This document shows positions 1,610-13,863 of a stretch of DNA of 14,507 nt, piece by piece. The DNA comes from a virus (Duplodnaviria > Heunggongvirae > Uroviricota > Caudoviricetes): IMG/VR virus record IMGVR_UViG_2563366838_000011, one strand, 5' to 3'. Both the position numbers and the translations under genes were made by a program. Every line of letters begins with the position of its first letter. The stretch's first letter is position 1. Under the pieces are notes generated by a model that saw only the letters and a program-made list of their open reading frames with translations, did not search any database and was not told the origin of the DNA.

Positions 1610-2824
1610 GTGAAACTCAATGCCCGTCAAATAGACACAGCCAAGCCAAAAGAGAAGGCTTACAAGCTGGCCGATGGTGGCGGTTTGTATCTCTTGGTAA
1701 AACCTAATGGAGGTAAATACTGGCGACTTAAATATCGTGTAGATGGTAAAGAGAAGCTATTGGCACTAGGTGTGTATCCTGAGGTTACTCTAGCCGATGC
1801 TCGGGCAAAACGTGAAGATGCGAAAAGAGGTATCGCTGGTGGTATCGATCCGATGGAAGCGAAACGAGAGGAAAAGATTGCCCGGGAAACGCAGTTAAAC
1901 AACACCTTCAAAGATATTGCCCTTGAGTGGCACAGCAGCAAATTAAAAAAATGGTCTGCTGGTTATGCTTCAGACATCCTCGAAGCCTTCAACAAAGATG
2001 TGTTCCCTTACATTGGCAAAAAACCAATCGCCGAAATCAAACCACTTGAACTTCTGAATGTGCTGCGGCGCATCGAGGGGCGCGGTGCTACAGAAAAAGC
2101 CAAAAAAGTGAGGCAGCGGTGCGGGGAAGTTTTCCGCTATGCAATAGTCACTGGTCGCGCAGAGTATAACCCTGCACCAGACCTTACTAGCGCGATGCAA
2201 GGCCATGAATCTAATCATTACCCTTTCCTTACAGCTAAAGAATTACCTGATTTTTTCAAGGCATTGTCCAGTTACTCAGGAAGCGCATTGGTTGTTATGG
2301 CGGCTCGTCTACTGATTATCACCGGCTTGCGGACTGGCGAACTACGTGGCGCATTATGGGATGAAATTGATTTCAACAAGGCTATCTGGGAGATACCCGC
2401 TTCACGTATGAAAATGCGGCGGCCTCATATTGTGCCATTGTCTGATCAGGCTCTTTCGCTTATTGGGAAGATTAGAGAAATAACAGGCAATTACCCTCTT
2501 ATGTTTCCCGGGCGCAATGATCCAAGGAAAACAATGAGTGAGGCCAGCATAAACCAAGTGTTTAAGCGCATTGGCTACGCTGGACGTGTAACTGGTCATG
2601 GGTTCCGGCACACTATGAGTACGATTTTGCATGAGCAGGGCTATAACACCGCGTGGATAGAAACGCAGCTCGCTCACGTTGATAAGAACTCAATTCGTGG
2701 CACATACAACCATGCGCAATATCTGGATGGAAGGCGGGAGATGCTTCAATGGTATGCCGACTATATGGATTCTCTCGAGCATGGCGGAAATGTGGTGCAT
2801 ATGGTGTTTGAAAAACACGCATGA
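1610..2824 (+). CDS. int: site-specific tyrosine recombinase, P4-type phage integrase
   Basis: 404-aa ORF with GTG start at 1610 preceded by GTGGAGG (1594-1600); N-terminal arm-binding-type region (AKPKEKAYKLADGGGLYLLVKPNGGKYWRLKYR), C-terminal catalytic region with HGFRHT and RGTYNHAQY motifs; placed directly beside a tRNA gene. Confidence 0.9.
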   Translation: MKLNARQIDTAKPKEKAYKLADGGGLYLLVKPNGGKYWRLKYRVDGKEKLLALGVYPEVTLADARAKREDAKRGIAGGIDPMEAKREEKIARETQLNNTFKDIALEWHSSKLKKWSAGYASDILEAFNKDVFPYIGKKPIAEIKPLELLNVLRRIEGRGATEKAKKVRQRCGEVFRYAIVTGRAEYNPAPDLTSAMQGHESNHYPFLTAKELPDFFKALSSYSGSALVVMAARLLIITGLRTGELRGALWDEIDFNKAIWEIPASRMKMRRPHIVPLSDQALSLIGKIREITGNYPLMFPGRNDPRKTMSEASINQVFKRIGYAGRVTGHGFRHTMSTILHEQGYNTAWIETQLAHVDKNSIRGTYNHAQYLDGRREMLQWYADYMDSLEHGGNVVHMVFEKHA

Positions 2825-2887
2825 AACAACTGGACAAGTATACAGAGGTTTACTAAAGTATAGGGGAGTAGATTGATAAAAACTCAC

Positions 2888-2937
2888 AGAGGATTGCTAT
2901 TTAACAGTTAGCCCTGGAGAAGGGCAATCGCTCTTTT
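2888..2937 (+). terminator. possible intrinsic terminator after int (imperfect stem AGAGGATTGC / GCAATCGCTCT followed by TTTT)
   Basis: about 10-bp imperfect stem with one bulge and a 26-nt loop containing an inner CCCT/AGGG hairpin, followed by TTTTAT; weak by sequence alone. Confidence 0.3.
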
Positions 2938-2967
2938 ATAAACGAAGGTGTATTGAGCCTTCTACGT

Positions 2968-3032
2968 CGCTGACAAAGCGGAATGTTCTTTAACAGGCTT
3001 TGGCGCTGACAAAGCGCAATTGTTCTTTAAAA
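2968..3032 (+). promoter_or_regulatory. 28-bp imperfect direct repeats CGCTGACAAAGCG-(G)AAT(T)-GTTCTTTAA (2968-2995 and 3004-3032); candidate operator sites in the int-alpA spacer
   Basis: two copies 36 bp apart, each with an internal CGCT/AGCG dyad; lie in the 428-bp non-coding spacer upstream of alpA. Confidence 0.4.
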
Positions 3033-3131
3033 CTACTGGATGTCACGCCTAATAGCGTGATCCTGCCGAAATGCAGGGTAGCTCTACCCTTGTGGAGCGA
3101 ACAAACCAAAACAATCTGACTATCTTTTATA

Positions 3132-3166
3132 AAAGACCGCAATATGTTTTTCATATTGTGGTCTTT
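3132..3166 (+). promoter_or_regulatory. 15-bp inverted repeat AAAGACCGCAATATG-TTTTT-CATATTGTGGTCTTT (one mismatch); candidate operator or RNA hairpin upstream of alpA
   Basis: near-perfect dyad with a 5-nt T spacer, about 90 bp upstream of the alpA start; not followed by a T-run, so not called a terminator. Confidence 0.35.
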
Positions 3167-3252
3167 GGCGTATTCGACATTTGACGCAAATAAAACTCTC
3201 GCCATTCGTTGCAGGAGGGGGTTATTGCGTCATTAGTACAGGATATTAATAA

Positions 3253-3456
3253 ATGGCTAATTACAATTCATTAATTCGTCTCTCTGAAGTTCAAAGGCGA
3301 ACTGGTTATAGCAAAGCATGGATTTATCGTCTTATTAGTCAGGGGAGGTTCCCTAAACAGGTAAAAATTGGAAGTCGGGCAATTGCTTTTGTTGAGTCTG
3401 AAATAGATGAATGGATTGAGAAGTGTATATTAGAATCTAGAGACGAGGTGGCCTGA
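3253..3456 (+). CDS. alpA: AlpA-family phage transcriptional regulator (small HTH DNA-binding protein)
   Basis: 67-aa ORF with AGGA 9 nt upstream; sequence LIRLSEVQRRTGYSKAWIYRLISQGRFPKQVKIGSRAIAFVESEIDEWI matches the AlpA/prophage CP4-57 regulator pattern; sits second after int as in P4-like islands and PICIs. Confidence 0.85.
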   Translation: MANYNSLIRLSEVQRRTGYSKAWIYRLISQGRFPKQVKIGSRAIAFVESEIDEWIEKCILESRDEVA

Positions 3457-3887
3457 TGGAAAAGAAAAACCGCCCATTACAGGCGGCTAATTCAGATATT
3501 CGTGTATCTGATGTTACGCCCCTTACAAAATCCCTTCAAGCACCAAAGCGCACACCGAAAAAGCATCGTGCCAGAGTCTATATGCTGCGTACTGGTATAG
3601 AGGGATGGACAGAAAATGACATTCTTCGCTACTGCCGTCTGTCTTCTGGTCGTAACTATGCAACAGAGTTAGAACGCCAGCTTGGAATCACTCTGGAGCG
3701 TATCGACGAAAAGAATCCTGATGGTATCGGAACACACCTTCGCTACCGTTTCTCCTGCCGTGGTGATGTTCTGAAAGTGATCACTCATATTAACCATCTT
3801 GCGAACATAAATGATCACAACGGACTTTCTCAGCAGGAAATTGCCGACATTCTGAAACTCTACCCGGACGCGTTTAACGCCGCCTAA
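3456..3887 (+). CDS. hypothetical protein, basic N-terminus, possible DNA-binding protein
   Basis: 143-aa ORF translationally coupled to alpA (TGATG overlap); Lys/Arg-rich N-terminal segment (PKRTPKKHRAR); no family recognised. Confidence 0.6.
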   Translation: MEKKNRPLQAANSDIRVSDVTPLTKSLQAPKRTPKKHRARVYMLRTGIEGWTENDILRYCRLSSGRNYATELERQLGITLERIDEKNPDGIGTHLRYRFSCRGDVLKVITHINHLANINDHNGLSQQEIADILKLYPDAFNAA

Positions 3888-4908: not shown

Positions 4909-5930
4909 CCGTCCAGAAGAAGATATTTTCACTGACTGCTATGTCGCAAAAATCCAGCAATATGACAGCAAAGTCTGGCATTAATACAGCAGATACAAGC
5001 AAAGCTTATCATTTTATGGTGGTAGGAGCGGATGCCTTAACTATGTCAGAAATTACGGTCGATGGTGTTAGCGTTGAGAAGGTCAGCGGCTGCGCCAGAG
5101 AATTTCTGGTCGTAGATGACCTGTTCTGCTCGCGTAGTGACTCCACAAAAATCTTCGTCCGCACGCGCGACGTTAACGAAATGAGCGCGATGTACTGTGC
5201 CTCTGGTTCTTCCAATAGTGAGTTTTCGGAGTCCATAAAAAAGAGCTTGCCGTTATGCGGCAACACGGTTTATGGTTATAAGGCACCTCATAAAACGGGT
5301 GCCGGGATTAGGACCCCGCAGGCAATCGAGGCGATACATGACGCGCCAGCGTCTTTTTTTGTATCGGCGCACACGCACACCTTATCAATGGTGGGCTGTA
5401 TGGGGCTGACTTCGGTCAGGCTGGTTTCCTTGATTGCCAGTAGTCCTAACCCTGTACAGTCCACCGCCAGCGAGCTTAGGACCTCCGGCGGTGGCTATAA
5501 ACCATCAATCAAGGAGGCTGCCACATGCTGGCTACTACCCCTACCCAAAAACCGCAATTTATCTGGATTATCGCCGCAGTTCGCCGCGATTGCCCGACAA
5601 TTACCGCCAAAATTCATCATATTGCTGCCGAGTCTGAACGCGATGCTCGCCGTTCTCTGGTGCGCGATCACATCTGCTTTTTTGCTGGTCGTATCCGCAT
5701 GGAGGTGGCACATGATTAAAACCTACGATGTGCATATGGATCCCCTCGAACGCACAAGCCAGATCATCACACTGACAGAAGTGATTAACGACATTCTGGT
5801 GAGCAACTCTCCCTCACGAGACGAAAGACTGAAGGCGTTACTCGCGATATTGGATCTCGCCGTTCGTGACGTTCATTTCCTGCTGGAAGGTGGACAAATG
5901 CCATGCAAAACGGGGGCAACCAATGAATAA
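4902..5930 (+). CDS. uncertain long ORF (342 codons); N-terminal about 125 codons protein-like, remainder of doubtful coding character
   Basis: ATG at 4902 overlaps the upstream stop (ATGCTAA) with GGAGG 9 nt upstream; the frame stays open for 1029 nt, but 5280-5520 translates to low-complexity S/T/P/L-rich sequence and contains hairpins and a terminator-like structure; the last 72 codons (from ATG 5712) look protein-like again. Confidence 0.3.
5340..5360 (+). terminator. terminator-like hairpin GACGC-GCCA-GCGTC followed by TTTTTTT, inside the long ORF
   Basis: 5-bp GC-rich stem, 4-nt loop, 7-T run at 5354-5360; a UUCG-tetraloop hairpin (CTGAC-TTCG-GTCAG, 5405-5418) and an 8-bp dyad (CCACCGCC...GGCGGTGG, 5461-5494) lie just downstream. 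Confidence 0.3.
5525..5719 (+). CDS. hypothetical small protein, alternative frame nested in the long ORF
   Basis: 64-aa ORF with strong SD (AAGGAGG) 7 nt upstream of ATG 5525; translation ([22 protein letters not shown]...RIRMEVAHD) is more protein-like than the overlapping frame of the long ORF. Confidence 0.35.
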   Translation: MLATTPTQKPQFIWIIAAVRRDCPTITAKIHHIAAESERDARRSLVRDHICFFAGRIRMEVAHD

Positions 5931-11411: not shown

Positions 11412-11873
11412 ATGGAACTAAAATTTATTGATAACCCTGTGCGATTACAGGCCTTTCTTAACGAGCCAGGCAATACCGAAAATATTGTTGAGCCGGGGCA
11501 CACGTACTACATCAAGCCTGATGCGGTATATCTCGGCATCTACGAAGGATTAGTGCTGGCTGGCGTTCATGAAGTGCGTAACTTCTGGCATAGCGTTGTT
11601 GAATGCCATGCGGTGTACGACCCCGGATTCCGTGGTGAATATGCACTGCAAGGACATCGATTATTCTGCAAATGGCTTCTCGAAAACTCACCATTCCTTA
11701 ACAGCATCACTATGGTTCCTGACACCACGAAATACGGACGGGCAATTATCCGTTTGCTTGGCGCTACCCGTGTTGGTCACCTTGATGATGCTTATATCAG
11801 ATGTGGTAAACCCGTCGGCGTAACGCTTTATCAGTTAACTCGGCAACAATATAAGGAATTCAGCGAATGTTAA
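11412..11873 (+). CDS. hypothetical phage protein (153 aa), first gene of the virion-protein-like operon
   Basis: ATG at 11412, 17 nt after the small ORF; its stop overlaps the next start (ATGTTAA); no family recognised; occupies the position of P22 gp14 in a 14-7-20-16-like gene order (positional inference only). Confidence 0.6.
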   Translation: MELKFIDNPVRLQAFLNEPGNTENIVEPGHTYYIKPDAVYLGIYEGLVLAGVHEVRNFWHSVVECHAVYDPGFRGEYALQGHRLFCKWLLENSPFLNSITMVPDTTKYGRAIIRLLGATRVGHLDDAYIRCGKPVGVTLYQLTRQQYKEFSEC

Positions 11874-12544
11874 TTACCCATATAGCTCATAAACATCTCA
11901 ATCGTGCCGTATACGAAAAAGGCGGTGATGGTGGTGCCTCTAAAGCTCAGGCGAAGGCCCAGCAGCAGGCAATTGATTTGCAGCGCGAGCAGTGGAATAC
12001 GGTGATGAATAATCTCAAGCCGTATGCAGAAGTCGGATTGCCTGCTTTACAACAACTACAAGGACTGATGACTCTGGAAGGGCAGAATAAAGCCGCGAAT
12101 GATTTCTTTGGTTCTGGTTTATATAAAACACAGGCAGATCAGGCCCGTTATCAGAACCTTGTCTCAGCAGAAGCTACCGGGGGGCTTGGCTCAACAGCTA
12201 CCAGTAACCAGTTATCTTCCATTGCGCCCATGCTTTATAACAATTGGCTTAGTGGGCAAATGCAAAATTATGGAAACCTGCTAAATGTCGGGATGAATGC
12301 GGCATCAGGGCAGGCAACGGCAGGGCAAAACTACGCCAATAATACCGGACAACTCTTGCAGGGGCTTGGCGCTATTCGTGCAGGTCAGGCGCAGCAGCCA
12401 TCCAGTCTTGCGCGTGGTATTGGTGGGGCAGCATCAGGCGCTTTAGCGGGTGCGCAACTTGGTTCCGTTGTTCCTGGAATAGGAACTGCGGCCGGCGCTA
12501 TTGGTGGTGGGCTTATTGGTCTTGTTGGGGGGCTTGGATTCTAA
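11867..12544 (+). CDS. putative phage DNA-ejection/internal virion protein with C-terminal glycine-zipper segment
   Basis: 225-aa ORF with AAGGA upstream; Gln/Asn/Ala-rich middle; C-terminus GIGGAASGALAGAQLGSVVPGIGTAAGAIGGGLIGLVGGLGF made of GxxxG/GxxxA repeats typical of membrane-inserting glycine zippers; size and position resemble P22 gp7-type ejection proteins (inference). Confidence 0.6.
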   Translation: MLITHIAHKHLNRAVYEKGGDGGASKAQAKAQQQAIDLQREQWNTVMNNLKPYAEVGLPALQQLQGLMTLEGQNKAANDFFGSGLYKTQADQARYQNLVSAEATGGLGSTATSNQLSSIAPMLYNNWLSGQMQNYGNLLNVGMNAASGQATAGQNYANNTGQLLQGLGAIRAGQAQQPSSLARGIGGAASGALAGAQLGSVVPGIGTAAGAIGGGLIGLVGGLGF

Positions 12545-13863
12545 TGGCGACATGGCAACTTGGCGGGCTGCCTAGCATGGCACCGCAAAATGATAATGCT
12601 CCTCGTTCTTCCGTTCCTCAGCCTGTGCAGTATCAGCAGCAGCCAAACGTAGGTTTAATGGCGCTACAGGGGCTAAGAGGCGTTGCTGAGATTAATCAGC
12701 AGGCGCAAATTTCCCAGCAGCTAAAAGAATATCAGGCACGGTTGGGTAGTGCGGTAGCTAATAATGATCGTGTTGGCGTGCATAAGTTAATGGCCCAGTA
12801 TCCCCAGTTTATGGCTGATTCTCAAAAACAGATGGGATTCATTGATGCTGAGCAAAATCGGCAGACCGCTGACGCTGCCATGAATCTGCGTCTTGCGTCA
12901 CAAACTGGAGATCCACTGACCATGCAGAAGGCCATTCAGCAGGCAAATCCAGTATTACAGCGATTTGGTCTTCCTGCTGAAGAGGTTTATCAGTCTTGGC
13001 AGAATGACCCACAGGAATTCAACAGAATCACTGACCTCATCCACCTCCATGCTGATCCAAATAGTTACTTTAGTGTTCAAGAGAAGCAGCAAGGGCAGAG
13101 TATTGCACAGCAGAACGCAGATACATCTGCATATAATGCTCAGGTTAATGCGGAGCAGGGTAATCGGCGGCTCGATATGGAGCAGTTCAAAGTCCTATCC
13201 GATAACCAACTACGCACGAGAGAAATGGTTCTGAAAGCACGACTTGGACGTGCTCAAAATGACATCGAGAGAGACAAGCTCAATGCTGAACTGAGCAAGG
13301 TACAGCAGGCGAAAGTGGAGAAGATGAACGATAAAATTAATACTGTTGCAGGTAATATCGACTCCTTGAACTCTGCGCTTGAAGTGGGTCATGAACTGGC
13401 GGGAATTGTAGGGAAACATCCTTCGGCCGTTACCCGTTCGCAGAACTATAACCCCCTGACGCTGGGGTTTGGATTCCTCCCTGATGTAGCAGAAGACACA
13501 CGAAGCCTACGCGCCAAAGCTGATGAATACAACCTAAAGGTTATTCTGCCTAGCCTAAAAGGTACTTTTGGCTCTAACCCAACCGAAGGGGAAAGGGCTG
13601 CCCTTATGCAATCTCAAAATGGCATTAAGTCAGCAACCAGCAATGAGGCATTTTTGCGAGAGTTGAATAAAGCGCAGGACGTAATTATTCGAATGCAGAA
13701 ACGACAGATTGCCGGGCTCGGTATTCCTGTAACCAAATCTAAGGACGAAGAAACTGATACCAAAATGCTGTTGCAGGATCCTTCACTGGTTAAGGATTAT
13801 GTGACCGCACATGGCTATCTGCCGGAAAGTTACTATCAGGCAAAACTTAAGGGATGGCAATGA
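12544..13863 (+). CDS. putative phage ejection/internal virion protein, Gln-rich coiled-coil protein (439 aa)
   Basis: start overlaps the upstream stop (TAATG); very Gln/Ala/Asn-rich with heptad-like charged stretches (LRTREMVLKARLGRAQNDIERDKLNAELSKVQQAKVEKMNDKIN); no family recognised; positional analog of P22 gp20 or T7 gp15 (inference). Confidence 0.6.
   Translation: MATWQLGGLPSMAPQNDNAPRSSVPQPVQYQQQPNVGLMALQGLRGVAEINQQAQISQQLKEYQARLGSAVANNDRVGVHKLMAQYPQFMADSQKQMGFIDAEQNRQTADAAMNLRLASQTGDPLTMQKAIQQANPVLQRFGLPAEEVYQSWQNDPQEFNRITDLIHLHADPNSYFSVQEKQQGQSIAQQNADTSAYNAQVNAEQGNRRLDMEQFKVLSDNQLRTREMVLKARLGRAQNDIERDKLNAELSKVQQAKVEKMNDKINTVAGNIDSLNSALEVGHELAGIVGKHPSAVTRSQNYNPLTLGFGFLPDVAEDTRSLRAKADEYNLKVILPSLKGTFGSNPTEGERAALMQSQNGIKSATSNEAFLRELNKAQDVIIRMQKRQIAGLGIPVTKSKDEETDTKMLLQDPSLVKDYVTAHGYLPESYYQAKLKGWQ

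Follow-up and report, generated by a model that had tools for sequence, protein, structure and literature searches.

A putative array of lambdoid nut sites between int and alpA in a satellite island of Escherichia coli

Here we describe the spacer between the integrase gene int and the regulator gene alpA in a stretch of DNA of 14,507 nucleotides (IMG/VR record IMGVR_UViG_2563366838_000011, Caudoviricetes), which we call the window. The gene order thrW, int, spacer, alpA fits the alpA control region of a Gram-negative phage-inducible chromosomal island (PICI) of the EcCIMP1 type. The elements found in this spacer are very probably N-utilisation (nut) modules of phage origin. We describe their composition, their variation among island alleles and the ways in which a helper phage might act on them.

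The int-alpA spacer

The features of the locus are collected in Table 1. The product of alpA, WP_000035054.1, is the same protein that is annotated at this position in E. coli MP1, and the MP1 spacer is 98.4% identical to that of the window, with 7 differing positions. It belongs to EcCIMP1, the PICI of E. coli MP1, which is mobilised by the P22-like phage Kapi1 (PMC11773190). A preliminary description of the window had proposed that the spacer is the control region of a master regulator, and this identity bears the proposal out, since the -449..+50 alpA fragment of EcCIMP1 drives helper-dependent expression (PMC11773190).

Table 1. Coordinates of genes and sequence elements at the int-alpA locus of the window.
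Feature	Position	Strand	Composition or remark
proA	1-1254
tRNA-Thr CGT	1369-1444
Tyrosine integrase gene (int)	1610-2824
int-alpA spacer	2825-3252		428 bp, between int and alpA
Candidate sigma-70 promoter	2831-2859	+	TGGACA, 17 nt, TAAAGT; just past the int stop codon
M0	2895-2925	+	boxA-like TGCTATTTAACAG, TTA, lambda-like boxB GCCCUGGAGAAGGGC
M1	2929-2981	+	boxA CGCTCTTTTATAAACG, hairpin GAAGG..CCUUC, linker UACG, boxB UCGCU-GACAA-AGCGG
M2	2984-3017	+	boxA-like TGTTCTTTAACAG, GCTTTG, boxB GCGCUGACAAAGCGC; the second direct repeat
M3	3021-3061	+	boxA-like TGTTCTTTAAAAC, TACTGGAT, phi21-type boxB GUCACGC-CUAAUA-GCGUGAU
M4	3061-3078	+	HK620-type boxB UCCUGC-CGAAAU-GCAGGG
Conserved hairpin	3081-3098	+	GCUCUAC-CCUU-GUGGAGC; folds in both island lineages
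Possible Rho-utilisation site	3099-3131	+	C-rich, G-poor, unstructured stretch
Predicted intrinsic terminator	3132-3166	+	15-bp stem, U5 loop, UCUUUGG tail; -20.8 kcal/mol
Conserved inverted repeat	3181-3232	unassigned	TTGACGCAA ... TTGCGTCA enclosing AGGAGGGGG
alpA Shine-Dalgarno sequence	3241-3244	+	AGGA
alpA	3253-3456	+	controlled gene; Pfam Phage_AlpA 7.4e-20

Nut-site modules

Interleaved boxA and boxB elements occupy positions 2895-3078 of the plus strand and form the modules M0 to M4, every one of which lies on the alpA strand. Compared with the boxA consensus (C/U)GCUCUU(U)A(AC), the copy at 2929 reads CGCTCTTTTA, and those at 2895, 2984 and 3021 each depart from GCTCTTTAA by a single base. 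In both direct repeats the T-rich tail is a boxA. By sequence, the boxB hairpins are P22-, HK620-, phi21- and lambda-like, that is, of types bound by known N proteins. A boxA lies a short distance 5' of boxB in M0 (3 nt), M2 (6 nt) and M3 (8 nt), while in M1 the spacing consists of a hairpin and UACG, as in a prophage of strain CFT073. Each boxB is also followed by AAT and a boxA. Considering both strands of the whole window, four of the five boxA-like matches are found on the plus strand within 2896-3030, and a scan for a boxA followed by a hairpin gave matches only on the plus strand of the spacer.

Several modules can be assigned to individual phages. The M2 boxB GCGCTGACAAAGCGC (3003-3017) is identical in 15 of 15 positions to the nutL boxB of P22 and recurs in nutL of two E. 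coli phages, 1H12 and Stx2_356, whose homologues of P22 N share about 70% and 68% identity with it; the boxA-boxB spacing of M2 is comparable to the 9 nt in P22. The four-part order of M1 (boxA, hairpin, UACG, hairpin) recurs in the nutR and nutL sites of the CFT073 icd prophage, with which M1 is co-linear; the gene downstream of that nutL encodes a Pfam N_peptide protein (1.5e-32). The boxA of a sister island at tRNA-Gly matches the nutR boxA of this prophage in 17 of 17 positions, and both M1 hairpins show compensatory changes among alleles. M3 aligns with nutR of phi21 and Kapi1 through boxA, spacer and boxB, and the loop of its boxB (3042-3061) is CUAAUA, compared with CUAACC in both nutR and nutL of Kapi1. 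The tRNA-Gly islands retain the M3 hairpin with G.U wobbles. The arginine-rich motif of Kapi1 N is identical in 22 of 22 residues to the phi21 N peptide of PDB 1NYB. M4 has the same hexaloop, CGAAAU, as nutL and nutR in the HK620 annotation and their counterparts in IME10 and 611R6 (UCCCGC-CGAAAU-GCGGGA), from which its stem departs by a single compensatory pair. At this point the tRNA-Gly islands read CCCGC-CGAAA(A)-GCGGG-AAU. M0 is the weakest module. Its boxB (2911-2925) is one loop base away from the lambda nutL boxB, GCCCTGAAGAAGGGC (GCCCUGAAGAAGGGC), and no phage carrying the exact M0 boxB was found.

Allelic and tRNA-Gly relatives of the spacer carry the exact boxA 12-mer TGCTCTTTAACA of Kapi1 nutR, and also CGCTCTTTGTAACAACG, which is found in nutR of the CFT073 prophage. 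A BLAST search of the phage collection with the whole spacer gave no match. Exact scans of IMG/VR with TCACGCCTAATAGCGTGA, GAAGGTGTATTGAGCCTTC, CTTTYCTGATGCAGGAAAG, GCGGGATGGTTCGTCCCGC and boxA followed by GCCCTGGAGAAGGGC returned only island copies or chance matches, and therefore the extra hairpins of long spacer variants and the boxB with a GGAGA loop are without an identified phage counterpart.

All five structures that the preliminary description had listed in the spacer are present. Its repeats, palindrome and hairpins do exist, but it had not recognised them as boxA and boxB of lambdoid nut sites. As they are boxA and boxB, the logic of the region would therefore be antitermination at the RNA level, not a set of operator repeats. 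The two direct repeats (2968-2995 and 3004-3032) have a 17-nt core that is 94% identical and a second block identical in 10 of 10 positions, offset by a 1-nt indel. A degenerate 27-mer made from the repeat has one match in the window (3004-3030) and none in 200 shuffles; the first copy is missed because of the 1-nt indel. The palindrome TCACGC-N6-GCGTGA is likewise found at 3043-3060. A proposed int terminator at 2888-2937 can form an imperfect hairpin of -14 kcal/mol, with CUCUUUUAU after it, but it is not conserved in the tRNA-Gly islands and is better read as the boxA-like TGCTATTTAACAG (2895-2907), the lambda-like boxB GCCCTGGAGAAGGGC (2911-2925) and the boxA CGCTCTTTTA (2929 onwards). The AGGGTA-GCTC-TACCCT hairpin at 3075-3090 is also present but not conserved. 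The hairpins that flank it (3062-3077 and 3081-3098) are conserved, and the first of them shows a compensatory change. The inverted repeat 3132-3146 / 3152-3166 pairs over 15 nt with 14 Watson-Crick pairs and one G.T.

We considered several other identities for the repeats. A CRISPR-like or ToxI-like repeat array was rejected, as there are two copies, no associated genes and hairpins that equal phage boxBs. The ToxI repeats of type III toxin-antitoxin systems measure about 36 nt and stand as several tandem copies beside the gene of a ToxN-family endoribonuclease, and the spacer has only two copies, 36-37 nt apart; across alleles there are 1 to 4 copies, which unique sequence separates in long variants. 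No toxin family was found among the neighbouring genes, which are int and alpA. Arm-type sites for Int or attP sites were rejected on position, because attL sits at the tRNA on the other side of int. Compensation by G.U pairs only, described below, also points to selection on RNA and against such sites. An open reading frame of 71 aa on the minus strand (2990-3205) overlaps the nut array and the terminator. It was rejected as a coding sequence, being interrupted in all frames in the tRNA-Gly lineage and struck by a 37-nt indel, although RefSeq calls it a hypothetical protein in long alleles. Judged from position and size, it is probably EcCIMP1_002 of Pick et al., a small 'UvrB-like' frame annotated between int and alpA that gave no phenotype (PMC11773190).

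The suggestion that the spacer could encode a small RNA survives in a weak form, in which a terminated leader of some 300 nt would be made in the uninduced state, but the spacer has no Rfam match: a covariance-model search of 2825-3252 found none at E<=1, and the long-variant spacer gave chance-level matches only. Folded as RNA, 2866-3260 shows far more structure than 100 shuffles of it (z-score -5.9).

Promoter, terminator and alpA-proximal elements

The nut array is bracketed by a promoter-like site and a conserved terminator, both predicted. The predicted promoter agrees with 9 of 12 consensus positions and is one of two promoter-like sites on the plus strand of the window and the sole one in the spacer. 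The tRNA-Gly islands retain it as TGGACA-17-TAACGT, and the sequence 3' of it has diverged.

Downstream of M4 no phage counterpart was found for the hairpin at 3081-3098. The stretch that follows has 7 C and 1 G in the 32 nt from 3100 to 3131, with a predicted fold energy of 0.0 kcal/mol in every lineage, and the 2015C allele has an extra CCAACC repeat within it. This composition makes a Rho-utilisation (rut) function possible. The inverted repeat at 3132-3166 has the stem-loop and U-tract of a Rho-independent terminator, with a mediocre U-tract in the window, and ends 87 nt upstream of the alpA start codon. The tRNA-Gly terminator carries one compensatory change of U.A to C.G, one change of G.U to A.U and a better tail, UUUUUG.

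The lineages agree exactly in both arms and in the AGGAGGGG core of the inverted repeat at 3181-3232 but have diverged in the sequence in between. This repeat may be a site for AlpA autoregulation, a proximal promoter or a leader RNA helix before the alpA ribosome binding site. The invariance raises the question whether a helper-encoded DNA-binding activator or anti-repressor fires a spacer promoter, for example at TTGACGCAA...TTGCGTCA, with the nut-like elements being incidental. Such a switch would agree with the reported autoregulation by AlpA (PMC11773190), with the antirepressors and CII encoded by Kapi1 and with the helper induction of another island, EcCICFT073, which lacks a nut array. 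We consider it unlikely, however, since it leaves unexplained the five alpA-oriented, phage-derived nut modules, their compensatory evolution and the conserved terminator that intervenes. There is also no credible conserved sigma-70 -10 element downstream of the terminator, and no lambda-CII-type TTGC-N6-TTGC site is present.

Distribution, alleles and conservation

At an identity of 90% or more the spacer is found in 281 of 5426 complete E. coli genomes, all of them on the chromosome. A version that is about 75% identical is present in 13 more genomes, in the sister island at tRNA-Gly, and no E. coli island lineages more diverged than the thrW and tRNA-Gly islands were found. To count spacer forms, 60 of the 294 matching records were taken at even intervals. 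Of these, 41 have the two-repeat form (427-428 bp) and 10 the one-repeat form (391-392 bp), followed by the long form (5), the tRNA-Gly form (3) and a form cut by the insertion sequence IS1 (1). In strain 23CRST038 (L004 2501-3351) IS1 splits the spacer after the first 138 nt, at window position 2962 inside M1, and takes away the remaining array and alpA.

The long allele of 651 bp, as found for example in SCU-172 and enterotoxigenic E. coli (ETEC) H10407, holds additional units. These include GCCCTGAAAAAGGGC, which is the exact lambda nutR boxB and is also found in one tRNA-Gly island. The ends of spacer indels fall within repeated boxB/boxA units, and therefore copy number changes by recombination between units. 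We further observed five more hairpins in the long allele (L003 1690-1890), such as CUUUUCUG-AUG-CAGGAAAG and GCGGGA-UGGUUCG-UCCCGC, some of which lie 8-11 nt downstream of a perfect boxA. A phage counterpart was not found for any of them, and they could be boxBs for N types yet unsampled.

Conservation of hairpins was judged by folding each sequence separately; counting of M4 pairs on a MAFFT alignment was dropped, its gaps being out of register. Two-sided changes are seen in M1 (GAAGG/CCUUC compared with GAAGA/UCUUC), in M4 (CCUGC/GCAGG compared with CCCGC/GCGGG) and in the terminator (UAUG/CAUA compared with CAUG/CAUG). The remaining hairpin changes yield G.U pairs, which pair only on the plus strand. 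These two-sided changes and strand-specific G.U pairs indicate that selection acts on the plus-strand RNA. The identity and homology of the elements, their strand, their order and their conservation with compensatory changes can all be read directly from the sequences compared.

The array core of the thrW long allele (L003 1501-2151) is 93-95% identical to that of a tRNA-Gly island (L005 2500-3141), compared with 70% for int and 76% for alpA in the same pair of islands. This difference points to cassette exchange or strong constraint, and it suggests that the nut cassette moves between islands. The same comparison bears on the idea that the array is non-functional debris of lambdoid recombination, or a set of weak intrinsic terminators that insulate alpA from int. 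The repeats do score as terminator-like (3 sites found, 0.4 expected), their copy number varies by recombination between repeats, and some modules have decayed. Generic terminators would not be expected, however, to reproduce exact boxB 15-mers of P22 and lambda and an exact boxA 12-mer, or to be co-linear with whole phage nut sites including the spacers. Debris would also sit badly with an array core more similar across lineages than the genes on either side and with its retention in about 290 of the 5426 complete genomes. We regard this explanation as quite improbable.

Other features of the island

The genes 3' of alpA are an AntA-family gene, an Ash-family gene with matches to isrK and C4 RNA, and a gene for a large primase; still further along are P22-like head-morphogenesis and ejection-protein genes. 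The Rfam match to isrK (63 bits) directly adjoins that to C4 antisense RNA (80 bits), both of them on the plus strand at 5283-5471 and inside the Ash-family open reading frame. This pair resembles the P1/P4-type RNA immunity module, and an N-modified polymerase coming from the alpA leader might override the terminator of the module at 5340-5359. The late region of the island (11412-13863) encodes homologues of the P22-type proteins of the helper. These comprise a match to the head morphogenesis family phrog_651 (1e-66), a protein 58% identical to Kapi1_056 and one 26% identical to the DNA-transfer protein Kapi1_057. The best terminator-like site of the window (9 pairs, UUUCUUUU tail) is on the minus strand at 3468-3488 and falls in the first codons of the open reading frame after alpA.

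Discussion

Our results lead us to propose, with reasonable though moderate confidence, that the N protein of a helper phage loads on the island transcript and allows reading through the terminator into alpA. The int-alpA spacer would be a transcribed leader in which an array of nut sites, with no fewer than four or five lambdoid specificities, is followed first by a probable Rho site and then by an intrinsic terminator. When no helper is active, transcripts that start at the weak promoter at 2831-2859 or read through from int would stop at 3132-3166, and alpA would be off. Once a lambdoid helper is induced or infects the cell, its earliest protein, N, would bind the matching boxB on the nascent island RNA and, with host NusA/B/E/G at boxA, convert RNA polymerase to a termination-resistant form that runs into alpA. 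AlpA would then amplify its own expression and drive excision. Carrying several boxB types, one island could answer many helpers. The start of transcription, termination in vivo, N binding, N-dependent read-through and the matching of modules to phages are the steps that we infer from the arrangement of the elements.

Published observations on EcCIMP1 fit a role for N. The -449..+50 alpA fragment responds strongly to the induction of Kapi1 with mitomycin C but not to mitomycin C in a non-lysogen, and the response persists, at a lower maximum, when AlpA is missing (PMC11773190). This fragment corresponds to window positions 2804-3302, and the candidate promoter, the terminator and all of the array therefore lie within it. 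The N of Kapi1 is of the phi21 type, as is module M3.

A wider proposal, to which we give an even chance, is that the island carries a multi-specificity nut 'keyring' before its master regulator. Any of several lambdoid N types would switch the satellite on in trans, and cassettes would be gained, lost, duplicated and exchanged among the lineages of islands as the repertoire of helpers shifts. The presence of many boxBs of different specificity in a row could also be read in another way, namely that the island RNA is a decoy that soaks up lambdoid N and thus serves interference or superinfection immunity and not sensing. EcCIMP1 does contribute to superinfection immunity against Kapi1, but neither Kapi1 titres nor CI expression are altered by EcCIMP1 (PMC11773190). 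A decoy would need high constitutive transcription, and the sole promoter candidate is weak; it would need neither a terminator right before alpA nor co-orientation with alpA. As the function of the array, a decoy therefore has little probability in our view, and it could coexist with sensing.

Several observations weigh against N-dependent control of alpA. The promoter matches only 9 of the 12 consensus positions, and the evidence from covariation is thin because only two diverged lineages exist. The boxA copies of the window are each one base off the consensus (GTTCTTTAA, GCTATTTAA, GCTCTTTTA). M4 is without a boxA of its own, the nearest upstream copy being 28 nt away, and several boxBs are found 3 nt upstream of a boxA, which is the order of rrn leaders and not that of lambda. 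Modules decay in some alleles, as S1-KEN has a broken lambda boxB and SCU-172 a broken M0 stem, and MP1 has a different first base in the M2 boxB; the tRNA-Gly islands lack M0. None of the modules reproduces exactly the boxB of Kapi1 itself (CUAAUA compared with CUAACC). Recognition of M3 by Kapi1 N is unproven because CUAAUA alters the loop, whose UAAC forms a GNRA-like fold in phi21 boxB (PMC12550061). Variation at loop position 6 does occur in a natural site of the phi21 type, which reads CUAACA in an Stx1a phage whose N motif is one residue off that of phi21. This variant covers position 6, and the M3 loop differs at position 5 as well.

A last point against N concerns generality. EcCICFT073 is induced by lambda and phi80 (PMC6092414), and no nut array was found in its int-alpA spacer (L101 29160-29524). 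Among 80 alpA loci from other genera we found no boxA enrichment upstream of alpA and a nut-like site in only one. The mechanism is therefore not general to PICIs. The EcCICFT073 spacer has repeats of the GAACAAC / GACACAAC type near each end, and a CACTCTTAAAAAT stretch in it resembles the lambda nutL boxA, without a boxB. The single nut-like site among the 80 loci belongs to an unrelated island of Providencia alcalifaciens (L072 2100-2210) and consists of TGCTCTTTAAAAT, 8 nt and GCUCCUG-CAU-CAGGAGC, about 340 nt upstream of the alpA homologue.

What we propose is a known antitermination mechanism in a new biological role. The island has the boxA consensus and the boxB hairpins in common with lambdoid nut sites, such as lambda pR-nutR-tR1-cII and those of P22, phi21 and HK620, some of them base for base. 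The layout is also alike, with boxA a few nt 5' of boxB, a C-rich stretch and a terminator gating the next gene. Unlike a lambdoid phage, the satellite has no N gene, and another element would have to provide N in trans. The island has at least five tandem modules of different specificity where a phage operon has one nut site, and several of the island boxBs precede rather than follow a boxA. In this respect the array is similar to the E. coli rrn antitermination leader (boxB-boxA-boxC), with which relatives of the spacer share TGCTCTTTAACA and the boxB hairpin immediately 5' of boxA. The boxB of rrn operons is dispensable and not phage-specific, and these operons use SuhB and S4, not N.

Other satellites likewise make their master switch depend on an early or regulatory helper protein, as for example P4 (helper P2 Ogr) and the Staphylococcus aureus pathogenicity islands (SaPIs; helper proteins bind Stl). 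These systems act at the DNA or protein level, by promoter activation or repressor sequestration, whereas in our proposal the satellite transcript would capture the RNA-binding antiterminator of the helper. Helper-embedded PICIs (Mageeney et al. 2023, PMC10111431) are another case in which Gram-negative PICI expression is tied to helper transcription. There the coupling is in cis, through integration in a helper late gene, whereas the present island sits at thrW and would be coupled in trans via N. The paper on helper-embedded PICIs makes no mention of nut sites or antitermination. EcCIMP1 (Pick, Stadel and Raivio 2025, PMC11773190) is the same element as that of the window, with the same thrW site, AlpA protein and 98.4% spacer identity. 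That study treats the fragment as a promoter, and nut sites, terminators and antitermination are unmentioned. Full-text literature searches for PICI or alpA together with nut, boxB or antitermination found no paper linking them.

The founding paper on Gram-negative PICIs, of 2018, calls their inducer 'under study' (PMC6092414), and the 2025 study of EcCIMP1 maps the response to a fragment and gives no mechanism (PMC11773190). The papers that we searched thus leave the helper induction of Gram-negative PICIs unresolved, and the nut array offers a concrete hypothesis. It predicts inducing phages from their N type, and would explain the variation in copy number and cassettes across the roughly 290 E. 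coli genomes that carry the spacer, ETEC H10407 among them. If true, it would supply, for one family of Gram-negative PICIs, the inducer that has long been sought, and provide the first example of a satellite that hijacks the RNA-binding antiterminator of its helper. Arrays of this kind would then be natural multi-input antitermination switches for use in synthetic biology, and satellites would have a new route to sense their helpers, at the level of transcription elongation.

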